DNA of 64,000 nucleotides, taken from positions 7,843-71,842 of the forward strand of contig CAYWNT010000007.1 in the NCBI GenBank assembly GCA_964459725.1. Direction: 5' to 3'. This DNA is from an uncultured Gammaproteobacteria bacterium. GTDB lineage: Bacteria > Patescibacteriota > Patescibacteriia > Patescibacteriales > UBA12075. Positions 4,740 through 31,146 of the stretch are shown here, in pieces. A program made the translations under genes and the position numbers. The notes beneath the pieces were generated by a model that was not told the DNA's origin, ran no database searches, and worked only from the letters and a program-made list of their open reading frames with translations. Every line of letters begins with the position of its first letter. The first letter of the stretch is position 1.

Positions 4740-5033
4740 TTATTTATTTGCCAGCTTGTTTACTTTTATAATTTCATCAATCATTTTTTGTTTTAGTCTT
4801 TCATTTTTTGAGCTACAAGCATTTTTAAAGCAGGTGTTTAAGTGTTTTTCCATCAGCATTTGATGAGCTGACCGGAGAAGCCCTATTGTTGCTAGGTTTT
4901 GTTGCATTATGTTGATGCAGTACTCCTTGGTGTCGATCATTTCCTCCATTTTGGAAATGAGACTTTTCGCCTTTTTGAAGTTGATAGAGATTTTTTTGTT
5001 GTTCATAAGATAAAATTTAATTCTATTACCCAT
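4740..5033 (-). CDS. csoR: CsoR/RcnR-family metal-sensing transcriptional repressor (start may be the second ATG at 5006)
   Basis: About 90 aa helical protein with the family Cys/His pattern (..EYCINIMQQ..AHQMLMEKHLNTCF). First gene of the metal operon. Confidence 0.8.
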   Translation of the reverse strand: MGNRIKFYLMNNKKISINFKKAKSLISKMEEMIDTKEYCINIMQQNLATIGLLRSAHQMLMEKHLNTCFKNACSSKNERLKQKMIDEIIKVNKLANK

Positions 5034-5049
5034 ACCTATGGTAGGGGTA
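5027..5049 (-). promoter_or_regulatory. putative CsoR operator (nested inverted repeat TACCCaTACCtatGGTAgGGGTA)
   Basis: G/C-tract pseudo-palindrome at or just upstream of the csoR start. Resembles the known CsoR operator style (TACCC..GGGTA). Confidence 0.5.
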
Positions 5050-5129
5050 TGCTAATATTGTATTCTTTTTTGTTTTTTTGGTCAAGCCTCTTTTTTGTTA
5101 TTTAGAATCTAGGAGTTTGTCATTATTAA

Positions 5130-16233: not shown

Positions 16234-16497
16234 TTAGTTTTTAATAATTTTTATCGGATGTCTGTATTTAATTAGGTTTATTTTTTTCTGCTTAGTCCAT
16301 CCTTTGATTTATTTTTCACGTTTCATAGCTTCTTCTTTGCTCTTATGATTTTCGTAATAAACAAGTTTTACGGGAAGTAGGTGAGAAGTAAATCTAACTT
16401 CACTTCTTTGATGTTGTTCTAATCTTCTTTTTAACTTATCAGTGAAACCTGTATAGAATAAATTATTTTTACAAAGTAGGATGTATACTTTATACAT
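16234..16497 (-). pseudogene. GIY-YIG nuclease-family (UPF0213-like) gene interrupted by an in-frame TAA at 16309-16311
   Basis: MYKVYILLCKNNLFYTGFTDKLKRRLEQH..EEAMKREK, then stop, then in the same frame IKGWTKQKKINLIKYRHPIKIIKN. Confidence 0.6.
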
Positions 16498-16539
16498 AGC
16501 AATTGAATTGTTGTTGTTATTTTATTATAACAAAAATCA

Positions 16540-16760
16540 GAGTTTTATGCTTGCACTGAGTTTATTGAACGTGCCTGTACTGAGCGAGGAGGTTTTTTAA
16601 CATTTTTTGCCCATTCGGCAAGCTCAGGGCCACTTCGATTCTTTGTTAATCTAAAATCAAAGTATTGTGCTTGCACAAGCCCTTCGGCAAGCTCAGGACC
16701 ACTTCGACTTCTATGTCAAAATAGCTAGTGCCTGCACTGAGCGAGGAGGGTGTTTAACGT
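16540..16760. repeat. cluster of dispersed direct repeats downstream of ssrA (module X 16571-16601 and 16728-16758; module Y 16614-16638 and 16683-16707)
   Basis: X is gtgcctgYactgagcgaggaggKtKtttaac. Y is ttcggcaagctcaggRccacttcga. tgcttgcac also occurs twice. Confidence 0.8.
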
Positions 16761-16785
16761 CAGTTAAATAACCGACGAGTCGAAG

Positions 16786-17170
16786 TGGAGATGGCGGGAG
16801 TTGAACCCGCGTGTAACAAGTTTTTATTAATACATTTACAAGAGTAGTTTAGTTTGTTGTTTCACTGCTTGCGTAAAAACTAAACAAAATCGCAAACAGC
16901 TAGTTTTCTAAGTTTAAATACAAAAGCGAAAACGAGTTTTGTATCGAACCTGATAATATTACACCCACGTCAGGTTATCAGGTCATCACCTGGGTGGATG
17001 GCTGTGGCTAATGTTAAGCTACAACTGGTGCAAAAGCAGGCATGCTGAAAGCAGCTTTTACTTTTGCGAAAGTGTTTTTTGCACTTATTATTTTGAGTAT
17101 GATTTGAGTGGTACTCACCCACTTCTTGAATATTAACAAAGAATACAAGTTATCGAATCCCTGCATCCCC
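16786..17170 (-). ncRNA. ssrA: tmRNA (ssrA), one-piece
   Basis: 5' GGGGATGCAGGGATTCGA and 3' GCGGGTTCAACTCCCGCCATCTCCA tRNA-like ends. Candidate tag ORF 17082..17014: AKNTFAKVKAAFSMPAFAPVVA then stop. Lies directly downstream of smpB. Confidence 0.85.
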
Positions 17171-18867: not shown

Positions 18868-19071
18868 GAGGAATTTAGAAATTTTTTTGGCTATTGCTAA
18901 AAATTTTTGTTTTGTATATAATACAAATAGTTGAGAAATCATTTCTTAACTTTTTTGTTTGAATAAAAAAGTTAAGACATGAAACCTATATCATCGTGAG
19001 TGGAACAGAAGCGGGCCTGTCCCTGCCTACCGGCAGGCAGGCGCCGAAGCTCCATCTTCGATGGAGCATAG

Positions 19072-21520: not shown

Positions 21521-21893
21521 CAAAGAAAGAAATCTCACGAAAGTGGGATTTTTTCTTTGTTATTTTTAGTAGGAGGAGAATCCCGATGATCAACTTTGTA
21601 AATATCCAAAAAACTTAAATATACACCTAATTATAATTAAAACAAACAACCAAAAAAGGCAGAGAGCCTCGATGATCAACTTTAAAATATCTATTAAACT
21701 AAAATATATATCTATTCACAATCAGAACAGATTACCAAAAAAGAAATGATCGAAAACGCCCTGGCTTTTCGATTTTTACCCCGATGAATATCGGGGCCCC
21801 CAGGGATCACAAATAAAAAACTTCTGACAATTCTTTGAATTATCAGAAGTTTGTTTAGTTGCGGTACTTTAGTTTTATTTCTAACCTAAATTA

Positions 21894-26545: not shown

Positions 26546-26619
26546 GGGCCATTAGCTCAGTTGGCTAGAGCACCTGCTTTGCAAGCAGGGGGTCAAGAGT
26601 TCGAGTCTCTTATGGTCCA
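26546..26619 (+). tRNA. tRNA-Ala (anticodon TGC) with a G3:U70 identity pair
   Basis: gggccattagctcagttggctagagcacctgcTTTGCAAgcagggggtcaagagttcgagtctcttatggtcca. Confidence 0.9.
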
Positions 26620-26786
26620 CAAAATAAAGAGTCGCCTTTTCAGGCGATTTTTTGTTTGGTGCATAAGAGGCGAAGAACTCTTGAGGTGGTAGGAATAGAA
26701 ATAAAGAGTAAAAGTTGCTTGAAGAACCAAAACAAGAAGAATAAGAAAAACTAAGCCGATTGGAGTGTTGGGGCCTGCCCCAGTAA

Positions 26787-26837
26787 GAGTCTCTTATGGT
26801 CCACAAAATAAAGAGTCGCCTTTTCAGGCGATTTTTT
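26787..26837 (+). repeat. exact 51-bp copy of the tRNA-Ala 3' end plus its terminator (original at 26603-26653)
   Basis: gagtctcttatggtccacaaaataaagagtcgccttttcaggcgatttttt occurs twice, 184 bp apart. Confidence 0.9.
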
Positions 26838-26930
26838 ATTTTGGAAACAATATTGATCTTTTAAAAAAAATATGCTAATATAATAATACAACATTTTAAC
26901 CTATTTTTAATAATTTTCTAATCAAAAAAT

Positions 26931-29576: not shown

Positions 29577-29623
29577 AAAAACAGCCTCATCCGAGACTGT
29601 TTTTATATTGTGCGCCCAGCAGG
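29577..29623 (-). repeat. 47-bp near-identical copy of the tRNA-Lys 3' end (13 nt) plus its terminator (original about 29775-29820)
   Basis: aaaacagcctcatYcgagactgYttttatattgtgcgcccagcagg occurs twice with two mismatches. Confidence 0.85.
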
Positions 29624-29807
29624 CCCGCCTGCGCCAAAAGGCTTCGGCGGGTAAAATTCTCACTTCAGGTTTTTTATGGTTGGTGATAATTGTTGCGCTT
29701 GTTTTGATAATTATTATTTTAGCTCTCCTTACTTGTTGTAAATGCAGGTTCGAATTTGCTAAAACACACAATATAAAACAGCCTCATTCGAGACTGCTTT
29801 TATATTG

Positions 29808-29880
29808 TGCGCCCAGCAGGATTCGAACCTGCGACCATTTGCTTAAGAGGCAACTGCTCTACCAACTGAGCTATGGGCGC
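29808..29880 (-). tRNA. tRNA-Lys (anticodon CTT)
   Basis: Reverse complement: gcgcccatagctcagttggtagagcagttgcCTCTTAAgcaaatggtcgcaggttcgaatcctgctgggcgca. Confidence 0.9.
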
Positions 29881-29956
29881 TACTACGCGTAAAGCTTCGT
29901 AGCGCAGGCTGAGCTGTTTAAAATCTAGCCTGCCATTCAAAGCTTTATGCGAAGGA

Positions 29957-30033
29957 TGGTAGCAGGGGCGGGGCTTGAACCCGCGACCTCAGCGTTATGA
30001 GTGCTGCGCTCTAACCACCTGAGCTACCCTGCC
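29957..30033 (-). tRNA. tRNA with CAT anticodon (Met elongator or Ile2), CCA encoded
   Basis: Reverse complement: ggcagggtagctcaggtggttagagcgcagcaCTCATAAcgctgaggtcgcgggttcaagccccgcccctgctacca. G1-U72 and A31-C39 are non-canonical. Confidence 0.8.
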
Positions 30034-30089
30034 ATGTTAATAGTGTGGTTACTATAGTATTTTATATTCAATTGTTAAATTGTTATTAT

Positions 30090-30213
30090 GTGCACCCGGA
30101 AGCCTGCCTGCCGGTAGGCAGGGACTCGCCCCGGTATACACCAGGGTGCTTCGCAAACCCTCAACCTCTTGGTCCGATCCCGAGTACTCGGGATTATCCA
30201 GTATTATAGCTAG
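30090..30213 (-). pseudogene. degenerate partial copy of tRNA-Arg (D-arm to 3' end) carrying three inserted hairpin/palindrome segments
   Basis: Shares gtgcacccggaag (13 nt) and aaccctcaacctcttggtccga (22 nt) with the intact gene. Inserts include the palindrome tcccgagtactcggga (30178-30193) and the 24-nt element at 30102-30125. Confidence 0.7.
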
Positions 30214-30287
30214 TGCACCCGGAAGGACTCGAACCCTCAACCTCTTGGTCCGAAGCCAAGCGCTCTATCCAGTTGAGCTACAAGTGC
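30214..30287 (-). tRNA. tRNA-Arg (anticodon TCG)
   Basis: Reverse complement: gcacttgtagctcaactggatagagcgcttggCTTCGGAccaagaggttgagggttcgagtccttccgggtgca. Two G-U pairs in the acceptor stem. Confidence 0.85.
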
Positions 30288-30498
30288 GAAACGAAACAGT
30301 TGCTTCTAGCTCCGGTAGAACCGGAGAGCTACAAGTGCGAATTTTCGTATGCAAAAAACTCCTCTACGGAGTTCTTTTTGATAATAACATATGAGTTAAA
30401 ATAAATCAAGACAGATTGACATTTTTCGCAATTTATGTATAATTAGATAAAATTGTTCATTTTATTCTTTTGTATTTACATAAAAAAGGAGAGAAATT

Positions 30499-31146
30499 AT
30501 GGAAATTAATAGCTTTAACCCAGAAGAGGCAATCATTTGGTTGATGATTTGTATTTTAATGTTGCTTGTTTGTTTGGTTTCTTATTTAGTTACCGATCGT
30601 TTTAAGAAGTTGAAGCGTTATATTGTAGTTTCAAGTCTTATGGTAGTATTTTTTTGTACGTCGATTTTGGGACTTAGTATTTTTGTGCCAAATAAGTCTA
30701 TGATTATTAGTAATGATTTACAAGAAATTGTTCATGTTAACCAGGGTTCTGTTTTTGCGATTTTTAGAAATAATGAGATTTTGGAAAATTGTAAAATCGT
30801 AAGTTTTAAAAAAGGGATTATTGATAAAATTTTTATGAGTTTTAATCCTATTTCAGTAAATCCGAAAGTGAGAGAAATTTCATATAGTGTTGAACTAATG
30901 AGCATCGAGTCTCCCGAAGAAGCGCTTAATAGGTTGAAATTTGAGAAAGAAGTTCGGCCTTTGAAGGACCATCTAAAATTTTGGTTGTATGAATTTCATG
31001 AAAAACACGGAAAGGAAATCGCCGAATTTTACAATCCGGTTAATGAAAAGCAACAACAGAAATTTTCTTCGTTGTTAAAAGATTTCATTTCACCTCATTT
31101 AGAGAAAACTGGTGTTGAGATCTCCAACGTTCGTTTCAATTTATAG
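30499..31146 (+). CDS. hypothetical two-TM protein
   Basis: 215 aa with AAGGAGAG SD and two N-terminal TM helices. Confidence 0.6.
   Translation: MEINSFNPEEAIIWLMICILMLLVCLVSYLVTDRFKKLKRYIVVSSLMVVFFCTSILGLSIFVPNKSMIISNDLQEIVHVNQGSVFAIFRNNEILENCKIVSFKKGIIDKIFMSFNPISVNPKVREISYSVELMSIESPEEALNRLKFEKEVRPLKDHLKFWLYEFHEKHGKEIAEFYNPVNEKQQQKFSSLLKDFISPHLEKTGVEISNVRFNL

Follow-up and report, generated by a model that had tools for sequence, protein, structure and literature searches.

A tRNA-Arg gene flanked by hairpin-bearing fragments of itself in an uncultured Patescibacteria genome, a possible remnant of an apparently undescribed GIY-YIG cassette that would invade tRNA genes

Why should an intact tRNA gene be bordered on both sides by broken copies of itself, and why should these copies be filled with small GC-rich hairpins? 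The question was raised by a locus in the genome of an uncultured bacterium (GenBank assembly GCA_964459725.1, labelled Gammaproteobacteria, GTDB lineage Patescibacteriota; UBA12075), of which we analysed a stretch of 64,000 nucleotides (contig CAYWNT010000007.1, positions 7,843 to 71,842), here called the window. An earlier note, made from the sequence alone, had described a tRNA-Arg gene with a 5′ duplication, a 3′ degenerate copy with three hairpin insertions, and a terminator-like hairpin in the leader. In our study, this observation was confirmed, and every element listed was found at, or within 1-2 nt of, the coordinates given there.

The tRNA-Arg gene (anticodon TCG) is intact and lies on the - strand at 30214-30287 (30213/30214-30287 by ARAGORN), with a score of 65.6 bits against Rfam RF00005. 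It is preceded by a promoter-like site, TTGATT-17 nt-TATTAT with a TG-extended -10 (30409-30381, - strand), which matched the consensus at 9 of 12 positions and is a pattern match only; relatives contain a TTGACT...TAAACT promoter-like site at a similar distance from the tRNA. The leader contains a hairpin (30357-30373), AACTCC-GTAGA-GGAGTT, followed by a T-run (30353-30373 in total, - strand). The earlier note read this as a terminator in the leader; the hairpin and T-run are real, but the consensus scan scored it as terminator-like only on the + strand (6 pairs, 3 GC, tail CTTTTTGA), whereas on the tRNA strand the tail is TTTTGCAT, and the hairpin would sit at the very 5′ end of the predicted transcript.

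The 5′ fragment begins with TTC followed by GCACTTGTAGCT (30327-30341, - strand), that is, leader plus tRNA positions 1-12, and the 16 nt at 30326-30341 are 100% identical to 30275-30290. It is interrupted by a 24-nt GC-rich block (30303-30326), consisting of the hairpin CTCCGGTTCTACCGGAG (30310-30326) followed by CTAGAAG, which is inserted between tRNA positions 12 and 13. The block is followed by CAACTG (tRNA positions 13-18) and the 9-nt spacer TTTCGTTTC (together 30288-30302). The 5′ fragment is therefore longer than the 16 nt noted earlier, since after removal of the 24-nt block GCACTTGTAGCT and CAACTG reproduce the first 18 nt of the tRNA.

The downstream copy (30090-30212, - strand) starts directly after the tRNA, without a gap, and lacks the 5′ acceptor strand. 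It starts with D-arm-like TAGCTATAATACTGGATA (30195-30212), followed by the 18-nt perfect palindrome ATCCCGAGTACTCGGGAT (30177-30194), which replaces the D-stem 3′ strand and the anticodon-stem 5′ strand. The part from the anticodon loop to the T-stem (30156-30176) is identical to the intact gene and belongs to an exact 22-nt repeat (30156-30177 = 30232-30253). After GGGTT, a 27-nt double-hairpin insert (30129-30155; GCGAAGC + CCCTGG-TGTATA-CCGGGG) was found in the T-loop between positions 55 and 56, followed by the remaining T-loop part CGAGTC (30123-30128), the 20-nt palindromic element CCTGCCTACCGGCAGGCAGG in the T-stem 3′ strand (30103-30122), and the 3′ end CTTCCGGGTGCAC (30090-30102, an exact repeat of 30213-30225), after which the downstream flank begins. 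Outside the inserted blocks the copy shows 62 matches and 6 mismatches to the tRNA, and all mismatches lie where the palindrome replaces the two stem strands. The stretch 29700-30520 was found to be 100% identical in a JGI metagenome contig and in two independent Logan assemblies (526-821 nt, different sequencing runs), so that an artefact of one assembly is excluded. The source population is represented by samples 3300009008, SRR8062320 and SRR8062321.

Are the inserted hairpins found elsewhere? The 20-nt element has a second exact copy in the window (0 expected by chance) at 19022-19041 (+ strand), 31 nt upstream of tRNA-Gly (GCC) and next to another GC hairpin (19049-19067). Exact copies were also found in 12 IMG/VR stretches and in at least 120 GTDB genome stretches from many phyla, and the element sits at the same T-arm position in the Dehalococcoidia locus L078 (L numbers denote the genome loci compared in our study). 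One isolate that carries the 20-mer is Olivibacter oleidegradans CCM 7765. A 16/18 relative of the 18-nt palindrome lies inside another pseudo-tRNA-Arg unit, in L144; apart from this, the other two inserts of the window were not found elsewhere, and scans of viral contigs for the tRNA-Arg 22-mer, the 18-nt palindrome and the T-loop insert gave 0 hits. The absence of the palindromes from all other sites, which had been set beforehand as grounds for rejecting the note's reading, is thus not what was found. Close relatives differ by the clean presence or absence of single hairpins, as L149 contains one TCCGCC hairpin and L147 two at the same site, whereas the assemblies of the window's own lineage are identical. 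Among the 20-mers, flanking direct repeats of at least 5 nt occurred at 11 of 133 (1.5 expected), nesting in a flank palindrome of at least 6 bp at 10 of 133 (1.0 expected), and the following base was C in 93 of 131, but no consistent target-site duplication was seen. The 20-mer was enriched near tRNAs (19 of 139 within 400 nt, at a density of 0.04 tRNA per kb) and near tRNA-box-like fragments (10 versus 3.5 expected), although most 20-mers (about 85-90%) are not near tRNAs or GIY-YIG genes.

The same modules were found in other Patescibacteria, through the tRNA-Arg 22-mer, at the same tRNA positions but with different hairpin sequences. L147 and L149 contain a 5′ fragment with the hairpin TCCGCCAGAGGCGGA at TAGCT|CAACTGG, and L145, L152 and L155 contain a 3′ T-arm copy with a hairpin at GGGTT|C. 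In the pseudo-tRNA-Lys of L160 the same D/anticodon segment is replaced by TCCGCCAGCCGGCGGA. In L161, L163 and L164 a fuller form is present, in which an intact tRNA-Lys is followed by a GIY-YIG ORF (Pfam PF01541; UPF0213-like, ~100 aa in L161 and L163), then by a pseudo-tRNA-Lys starting at TAGCTCAG, and then by the ATG of the conserved downstream gene. The pseudo-copies of L161 and L163 start at TAGCTC, the same point as in the window, and contain 1 and 3 hairpins, respectively, with 72/0 and 67/0 matches/mismatches elsewhere; their double mini-hairpin always follows CAG. In L142, L147, L152 and L155 the same downstream gene follows the tRNA directly.

The GIY-YIG ORFs were not confined to these loci. 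Of about 117 loci containing the 20-mer, 7 contained GIY-YIG ORFs, and all 8 of these ORFs lie within about 400 nt of the 20-mer, each between a hairpin-bearing pseudo-tRNA and an intact tRNA (Leu, Arg, CAT) in Bacteroidota, Saccharibacteria and Dehalococcoidia. In total, an endonuclease ORF in this arrangement was found in L161, L163, L164, L127, L061, L079, L047, L117, L023 and L078; however, the loci examined were selected through the 20-mer or the tRNA-Arg 22-mer and are not an unbiased sample. A tblastn search with a Bacteroidota GIY-YIG protein gave no match among plasmids, and among phages it found a related small gene in Rhizobium phages, which is not next to a tRNA. Within the window, 4 of 7 tRNAs have a copy of their 3′ end downstream, each next to a GC hairpin. 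The only GIY-YIG homolog found in the window is a UPF0213-like gene remnant with an in-frame TAA (16267-16521, - strand), about 290 nt downstream of tmRNA (tblastn E = 4.5e-6; jackhmmer E = 1e-20). Enrichment of the mini-hairpin motif GCGAAGC/CCGAAGC near tRNAs in the window was not supported.

The interpretation in the earlier note was partly supported. Its suggestion of repeated hits by small palindromic insertion sequences holds, but its alternative, recombination debris, is too vague, and its statement that no standard feature gives this layout needs correcting, as the layout recurs in other Patescibacteria, Bacteroidota and Chloroflexota and in its complete form contains a small GIY-YIG endonuclease ORF, which the note could not have seen. 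We consider it somewhat more likely than not that the locus is the ORF-less remnant of one or two invasions of the tRNA-Arg (TCG) gene by a mobile cassette, whose core is a very small GIY-YIG endonuclease gene (UPF0213/YhbQ-like, catalytic domain only, ~85-100 aa). In complete cassettes the element sits in or beside a tRNA gene, an intact tRNA is kept, and the displaced part (positions 8-76 on the 3′ side, or a 5′ portion on the 5′ side) remains as a pseudo-copy next to the native flank. In this view, the displaced pieces were then, or at the same time, interrupted at defined positions (12/13 in the D-arm, the D-stem 3′/anticodon-stem 5′ segment, 55/56 in the T-loop, and the T-stem 3′ strand) by very small palindromes that behave as mobile or copied units. 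The interruptions cut the direct repeats into uninterrupted stretches of at most 22 nt, which should block the recombination that would otherwise delete the duplication, and the remnant beside tmRNA would be a decayed copy of the endonuclease gene.

Our analysis establishes the anatomy, its recurrence at the same tRNA positions in other lineages, the linkage of GIY-YIG ORF, pseudo-tRNA and hairpin, and the presence/absence differences between relatives. In contrast, the nuclease activity on tRNA-gene DNA, the homing of the cassettes, the order of events, the way the hairpins are inserted and move, and the former presence of an ORF at this site are inferred; the only support for homing is the presence or absence of the GIY-YIG ORF at an otherwise conserved tRNA-Lys/membrane-gene junction. 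Several facts weigh against this interpretation. No endonuclease ORF lies between the intact tRNA-Arg and its pseudo-copy, the gap is 0 nt and a clean loss of about 450 nt is not explained; L160 has a similar ORF-less form with a 16-nt gap. The GIY-YIG proteins contain only a catalytic domain and no recognisable DNA-binding domain, so that sequence-specific homing is not obvious. Searches for orthologous loci through neighbouring genes failed, as ORF215 has no close homologs and the closest relatives are at most about 68% identical in Gmk and lack this locus (L136 and L137 have no tRNA-Arg nearby), and the history of this exact site therefore cannot be reconstructed from them.

The arrangement was compared with known systems. 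Mobile endonuclease ORFs of fungal mitochondria (Allomyces macrogynus atp6; Glomus atp6, atp9, cox2, nad3; PMC3630166) carry a copy of a host gene's end, and the free-standing ORF (GIY-YIG in Glomus atp9) sits between the inserted part, which keeps the gene functional, and the displaced native part, which stays next to the original downstream flank as a pseudo-fragment. This is the order seen in L161 and L163. In the window, the intact gene and a displaced fragment at the native flank are present, the latter lacking its 5′ acceptor strand and carrying three inserted blocks, but the ORF is absent. The present system differs in that the host gene is a bacterial tRNA gene and not a mitochondrial protein gene, the nuclease is a catalytic-domain-only UPF0213-type protein, and the two copies are identical in sequence and distinguished by hairpin insertions rather than by nucleotide divergence. 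Phage T4 SegB (PMC2330249) is a GIY-YIG homing endonuclease encoded in a tRNA gene cluster that promotes inheritance of the tRNA region; it is a full-length, free-standing enzyme whose cleavage is shown, which is not so for the proteins here, and partial tRNA duplications or hairpin insertions are not part of that system as described. Small GC-rich hairpin-forming units of 20-40 nt, dispersed in AT-rich DNA, sometimes nested in other palindromes and differing in presence between relatives, are represented by yeast mitochondrial GC clusters (PMC4478555), by double-hairpin and repetitive hairpin-forming elements of fungal and sponge mitochondria (PMC2800124) and, reportedly, by cyanobacterial small dispersed repeats (Elhai et al., 2008). 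The 20-mer differs from these in being conserved exactly across many bacterial phyla with GC contents from 26 to 70%, in its preference for pseudo-tRNA pieces and in its link to GIY-YIG cassettes, and its mobilisation by an enzyme is hypothetical. REP/BIME elements (PMC3733652), which are associated with RAYT transposases, are likewise short extragenic palindromes in many copies, but they are species-specific and their two superfamilies are defined by a terminal GTAG or CGTC tag, whereas the 20-mer starts with CCTG and ends with CAGG and contains GTAG only internally, on the reverse strand. Our literature searches found nothing on the 20-mer sequence, on hairpin insertion in Patescibacteria, on GIY-YIG with tRNA genes or pseudo-tRNA, or on UPF0213/YhbQ/COG2827, and we found no paper describing this arrangement.

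Other explanations were considered less likely. Local tandem duplication by replication slippage or fill-in of staggered breaks, with no cassette ever present and with later colonisation of the redundant pieces by palindromes, insertions being tolerated only in non-functional copies, is possible but unlikely. It is favoured by the zero gap, by the 5′ side, which after hairpin removal reads as two 21-nt units separated by TTTCGT, by the ORF-less forms in L160, L121 and L129, and by the many non-tRNA contexts of the hairpins. However, it does not explain why the copy starts at the same tRNA position (8, TAGCT) as the cassette-associated copies in L161 and L163, why unrelated hairpins sit at identical positions (12/13 and 55/56) in different lineages, or why every GIY-YIG ORF in the sampled loci is flanked by such copies. 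A functional structured RNA or DNA kept by selection, such as leader and trailer elements guiding processing of the tRNA operon or decoys for tRNA-targeting nucleases, is quite unlikely. The fragments lie inside the predicted transcript, the region folds much better than shuffles (z = -3.96), hairpins in relatives often have UUCG- or GNRA-type loops, the 5′-Lys unit recurs in 14 copies with some compensatory stem changes, and identity to the tRNA is retained outside the inserts. Nevertheless, the good fold is a trivial result of GC palindromes and duplicated acceptor strands, and modules are present or absent among close relatives, where simple Arg-Lys loci with 2-14 nt spacers function without them. 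The number and position of hairpins differ between the orthologous pseudo-copies of L161 and L163, the stems of L152 and L153 carry uncompensated mismatches, and the 20-mer occurs in both orientations relative to the tRNA strand, so that its central mismatch is A-C in some cases and G-T in others. Rfam searches at gathering and at E = 10 returned only the three tRNAs and no match to the fragments. The outer acceptor stem predicted by RNAfold between the 5′ fragment and the 3′ end of the pseudo-copy was rejected as a functional feature, since relatives carry only one of the two fragments.

Scars of islands or prophages integrated through tyrosine integrases and later deleted are also quite unlikely. 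The direct repeats of tRNA 3′ ends downstream of tRNA-Ala, -Glu, -Lys and -Arg resemble att duplications, and the tRNA-Glu spacer contains two about 30-nt direct repeats that could be arm-type sites. However, no integrase family was recorded among the called genes within about 9 kb on either side of tRNA-Arg (21165-41728), the spacers are 0-290 nt without an island, and neither a copy of positions 8-76 nor a 5′ fragment would be produced by integrase sites; in relatives, a GIY-YIG ORF and not an integrase-bearing element lies between the copies. BLAST against phage genomes gave tRNA-only hits. An intron-containing or split tRNA was rejected, as the pseudo-copy has no 5′ acceptor strand and two of its stem strands are replaced, in-silico removal of the 20-mer restored no ARAGORN tRNA in any locus, and an archaeal-type multi-intron or split gene does not fit a bacterial genome (tmRNA present). 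Mis-joined reads at a repeated tRNA, a general risk of short-read metagenome assembly, are practically ruled out by the identical assemblies and by the same architecture in dozens of unrelated assemblies, including genomes of isolates.

A bolder possibility, which we regard as doubtful, is that the GC hairpins, including the pan-bacterial 20-mer, are the smallest known non-autonomous mobile elements, mobilised or templated by catalytic-domain-only GIY-YIG (UPF0213) nucleases that cut tRNA-gene DNA at structure-defined points (7/8, 12/13, 55/56 and the anticodon loop). Together they would form a previously unrecognised tRNA-gene homing system spread across Patescibacteria, Bacteroidota, Chloroflexota and other phyla, which would also give the large UPF0213/YhbQ family its first function.

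If the cassette interpretation is right, tRNA genes in many uncultured and cultured bacteria are recurrent targets of a selfish endonuclease cassette that has not been described, and the 20-nt palindrome conserved unchanged across phyla becomes a candidate for the smallest horizontally spreading DNA element. The hairpin-laden pseudo-tRNAs, which sit inside tRNA operons, can confuse tRNA annotation and genome binning and would mark sites of past invasion, whereas the widespread, function-less UPF0213/YhbQ GIY-YIG family would gain a concrete, testable role.

The window was found to be a low-GC (~34%) piece of a bacterial chromosome containing a tmRNA, seven tRNAs and housekeeping genes, and it corresponds to the JGI metagenome contig Ga0115649_1000122 (174 kb). 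The guanylate kinase hits placed the organism in the Patescibacteria (CPR), where the best named relatives were Moranbacteria, Parcubacteria and "Patescibacteria group", at 68% identity or less. The earlier note had described a tRNA-Arg gene flanked by fragments of itself, and in our study every element that it listed was found to be present. The intact tRNA-Arg (TCG) was located at nucleotides 30214-30287 on the - strand. Upstream of it were a promoter-like TTGATT-17-TATTAT (30409-30381) and a hairpin plus T-run (30357-30373), followed by an exact 16-nt copy of the tRNA 5' end (30326-30341) and the hairpin CTCCGGTTCTACCGGAG. When the 24-nt block 30303-30326 was removed, the 5' fragment read GCACTTGTAGCT+CAACTG, which is the first 18 nt of the tRNA. 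Directly after the tRNA, with no gap, a copy began at the D-stem (TAGCT) and ran to the 3' end (30090-30212). In that copy an 18-nt perfect palindrome replaced the D-stem 3' and anticodon-stem 5' strands, a 27-nt block was present in the T-loop after GGGTT, and a 20-nt hairpin was present in the T-stem 3' strand, whereas everything from the anticodon loop onward was identical to the intact gene (22 + 6 + 13 nt). The stretch was 100% identical in two further, independent assemblies; mis-assembly, which had been named beforehand as a possible refutation, is not the explanation.

The neighbourhood of the locus contained further signals and repeats. A perfect consensus promoter, TTGACA-16-TATAAT (30416-30443, + strand), faced ORF215 (30499-31146), a lineage-specific protein with no Pfam match and almost no homologs. 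The tRNA-Met had its own promoter-like site (30051-30078) right after the pseudo-tRNA-Arg, and the spacer between tRNA-Met and tRNA-Lys (29883-29954) formed a 28-nt imperfect inverted repeat (79% complementary). The tRNA-Ala, tRNA-Glu and tRNA-Lys of the window were also found to contain 3'-end copies downstream, each beside a GC hairpin. For tRNA-Ala, the 3' end plus its terminator was repeated 186 nt downstream (26601-26650 and 26787-26841; 55 nt, 98% identical), and the GC hairpin TGGGGCCTGCCCCA (26769-26782) directly preceded the repeat. Downstream of tRNA-Glu (21560-21820), a weak copy of its 3' end (21797-21820) followed the hairpin CCCCGATGAATATCGGGG (21779-21796), and the spacer contained two ~30-nt direct repeats (about 21576-21606 and 21662-21691; ...cgatgatcaacttt...). 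In the region of tRNA-Lys (29577-29651 and 29744-29755), the 3' end of the tRNA plus terminator was repeated 197 nt downstream (46 nt, 96% identical), preceded by a GC-rich imperfect hairpin (29623-29651), and an antisense copy of its T-arm (ATTCGAACCTGC) was present between the two.

The palindromes were found to occur elsewhere. The 20-mer CCTGCCTACCGGCAGGCAGG occurred a second time in the window, 31 nt upstream of tRNA-Gly, where none was expected by chance. Exact copies were found in 12 IMG/VR stretches and in at least 120 stretches of GTDB genomes. Those genomes spanned Bacteroidota, many Patescibacteria lineages, Ignavibacteria, Omnitrophota, Chloroflexota, Planctomycetes, Nitrospirae, delta- and gammaproteobacteria and a few isolates, with a GC content ranging from 26 to 70%. 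The flanks were unrelated, apart from a C (or T) after the element. The element was nested in a larger palindrome in 10 of 133 cases (1.0 expected) and was flanked by short direct repeats in 11 of 133 (1.5 expected). It was about four- to five-fold enriched near tRNA genes (19 of 139 within 400 nt) and about three-fold enriched near tRNA-box-like fragments, although most 20-mers were not near tRNAs or GIY-YIG genes. In Bacteroidota and other phyla (GTDB loci L026, L075, L050, L080, L019, L056 and others) the 20-mer often sat inside short tandem repeats of 6-8 nt units (for example cttgata cttaata cttgata), a context unrelated to tRNAs. The 18-nt palindrome had a 16/18 relative inside a pseudo-T-arm unit next to tRNA-Arg (TCT) in another Patescibacteria contig (L144), whereas searches for the other inserts did not find them elsewhere. 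Of the interpretation given in the earlier note, the idea of small palindromic insertions is supported by our study.

The layout was also recurrent. A metagenome scan with the 22-mer shared by the tRNA and its copy returned 23 tRNA-Arg (TCG) loci from related Patescibacteria. In the simplest of these loci (L139, L142, L144, and L160), tRNA-Arg and tRNA-Lys (CTT) were 2-14 nt apart and a conserved membrane-protein gene followed directly. The loci L147 and L149 contained a 5' fragment of tRNA-Arg with a hairpin between TAGCT and CAACTGG, which is the same position (12/13) as in the window, but with a different hairpin (TCCGCCAGAGGCGGA). The loci L145, L152, and L155 contained a T-arm-to-3'-end copy with a hairpin after GGGTT, which is the same T-loop position (55/56) as that of the 27-nt block of the window. 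L160 contained a tRNA-Lys copy without its 5' end, in which TCCGCCAGCCGGCGGA replaced the same D/anticodon segment as the palindrome of the window. Several loci contained 3' units of tRNA-Lys (AATCCCAG[hairpin]CCGACCCA) and a conserved 5'-Lys unit (14 copies). In L145, L147, L149, L151-L154, L158, L159, L161, L163, and L164, a conserved ~85-135-nt unit upstream of tRNA-Lys contained the sense tRNA-Lys 5' end (GGGTCGGTAGCTC), a variable GC hairpin, CAGGCAGC..AGAAT and then an antisense copy of the tRNA-Lys 5' part (CTACCAGCTTCGCTACCGA), so that it looks like an element with terminal inverted repeats. The modules came and went between close relatives, and single hairpins differed cleanly, one in L149 versus two in L147.

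The piece missing from the tRNA-Arg locus of the window would be a GIY-YIG gene. In L145, L150, and L153 of these Patescibacteria loci, an ORF of ~100 aa with a GIY-YIG catalytic domain (Pfam PF01541) was present between tRNA-Lys and the membrane gene, and it showed weak similarity to the UPF0213 structures 1ywl and 1zg2. Close homologs of that protein all sat beside tRNAs, whereas a related phage GIY-YIG gene was not tRNA-linked. The complete arrangement was present in the loci L161, L163, and L164, where an intact tRNA-Lys was followed by a spacer with 3' unit(s), the GIY-YIG ORF, a tRNA-Lys copy that started at TAGCTCAG (no 5' acceptor strand) and carried one or three hairpins, and then the ATG of the native downstream gene. 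Outside the hairpins these copies matched the intact tRNA with no mismatches (72/0 for L161 and 67/0 for L163). This is the same object as the pseudo-tRNA-Arg of the window, except that in the window nothing lies between the tRNA and the copy.

The GTDB loci gave independent support. An iterative profile search over the retrieved loci found GIY-YIG ORFs in 7 of about 117 of the GTDB 20-mer loci, and every one was next to the 20-mer. The loci had, however, been selected through the 20-mer or the tRNA-Arg 22-mer, so the association is not an unbiased estimate. Each of the loci with such an ORF showed a pseudo-tRNA, then the GIY-YIG ORF, then an intact tRNA. The pseudo-tRNA was usually a 5' half ending in the anticodon loop, whereas in the locus L023 it ended in the T-loop, and it carried the 20-mer or variants in the D-loop or D-stem. 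The intact tRNA was Leu-CAA/TAA or Arg-CCG. The locus L127 contained two such units in tandem. In the locus L078 (Dehalococcoidia, 65% GC) an intact tRNA (CAT) was followed by GIY-YIG and then by a full-length copy with four hairpins, and the 20-mer was present at GGTTCAAATC|CCTCC, the same T-arm position as in the window. Upstream of this tRNA (CAT) was a tandem array of at least six 5'-half pseudo-tRNAs, GGCAGCGTA[CCCGCC-loop-GGCGGGA]GGGGACTCATAAG, in each of which a GC hairpin replaced the D-arm. In the GTDB locus L117 (about 5000-5110), the tRNA copy downstream of the GIY-YIG ORF continued past the anticodon into about 200 nt that look like a group I intron, and ARAGORN did not call a tRNA there. 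ORF-less 5' units with the 20-mer were also found in other phyla (L121, L129, and L100). The window contained one GIY-YIG homolog, a UPF0213-like gene at about 16267-16521 (-), roughly 290 nt downstream of tmRNA, with an in-frame TAA stop (…KREK-stop-IKGWTKQKK…). The spacer in this region (16267-16800, - strand) contained two ~100-nt tandem repeat units, including an antisense copy of the tmRNA 3' end junction (tcgaagtgg).

The best-supported reading is that small GIY-YIG genes are mobile cassettes that invade tRNA genes, where the genome keeps an intact tRNA and the displaced part stays next to the native flank. This logic is documented for mobile endonuclease ORFs in fungal mitochondria, in which an inserted gene end replaces the native one and pushes it downstream (PMC3630166), and it also recalls T4 SegB, a GIY-YIG homing endonuclease in a tRNA cluster (PMC2330249). 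The observation itself is real, whereas all steps involving nuclease activity, homing and hairpin mobilisation are inferred. In this view, the two copies could not diverge by point mutation, because the functional one is constrained, and the displaced one would instead be broken up by small GC palindromes. The copies showed zero mismatches yet carried up to three or four hairpins; in this view, hairpin insertion would be much faster than point mutation or would be coupled to the duplication event. The identical insertion positions in lineages with unrelated hairpins (12/13 and 55/56) point to position-specific breaks in tRNA-gene DNA, rather than to target choice by each hairpin. The interruptions reduce uninterrupted homology to 22 nt or less, which should, by inference, protect the duplication from deletion. 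The organism has no close sequenced relatives for this locus, and the zero-gap, ORF-less state in the window could result either from loss of the ORF or from fill-in and rejoining of staggered breaks without capture of a cassette.

Three other explanations were considered. Slippage duplication plus independent colonisation by palindromes explains the zero gap, but it does not explain the shared start point, the shared insertion positions or the GIY-YIG linkage. A functional RNA would be in keeping with the strong fold of the region (z = -3.96); however, such a fold is expected from GC palindromes, and this reading is weakened by the presence/absence among relatives, the variable hairpin number, the uncompensated stem mismatches and the occurrence of the 20-mer in both orientations. 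Integrase att scars are unlikely, as no integrase family was recorded among the called genes within about 9 kb either side of tRNA-Arg, no island was present and the relatives carried a GIY-YIG ORF instead.

Mobile endonuclease ORFs with host-gene-end duplication and very small palindromic mobile elements are already known, whereas we found no paper describing these cassettes or the 20-mer in a literature search that did not cover subscription literature. The arrangement studied here departs from the mitochondrial ORFs in that its host gene is a tRNA gene whose displaced copy is interrupted by GC palindromes, and in that no ORF separates the two copies in the window. The overall layout is best read as an ORF-less member of a recurring module of tRNA, GIY-YIG, pseudo-tRNA and hairpins.
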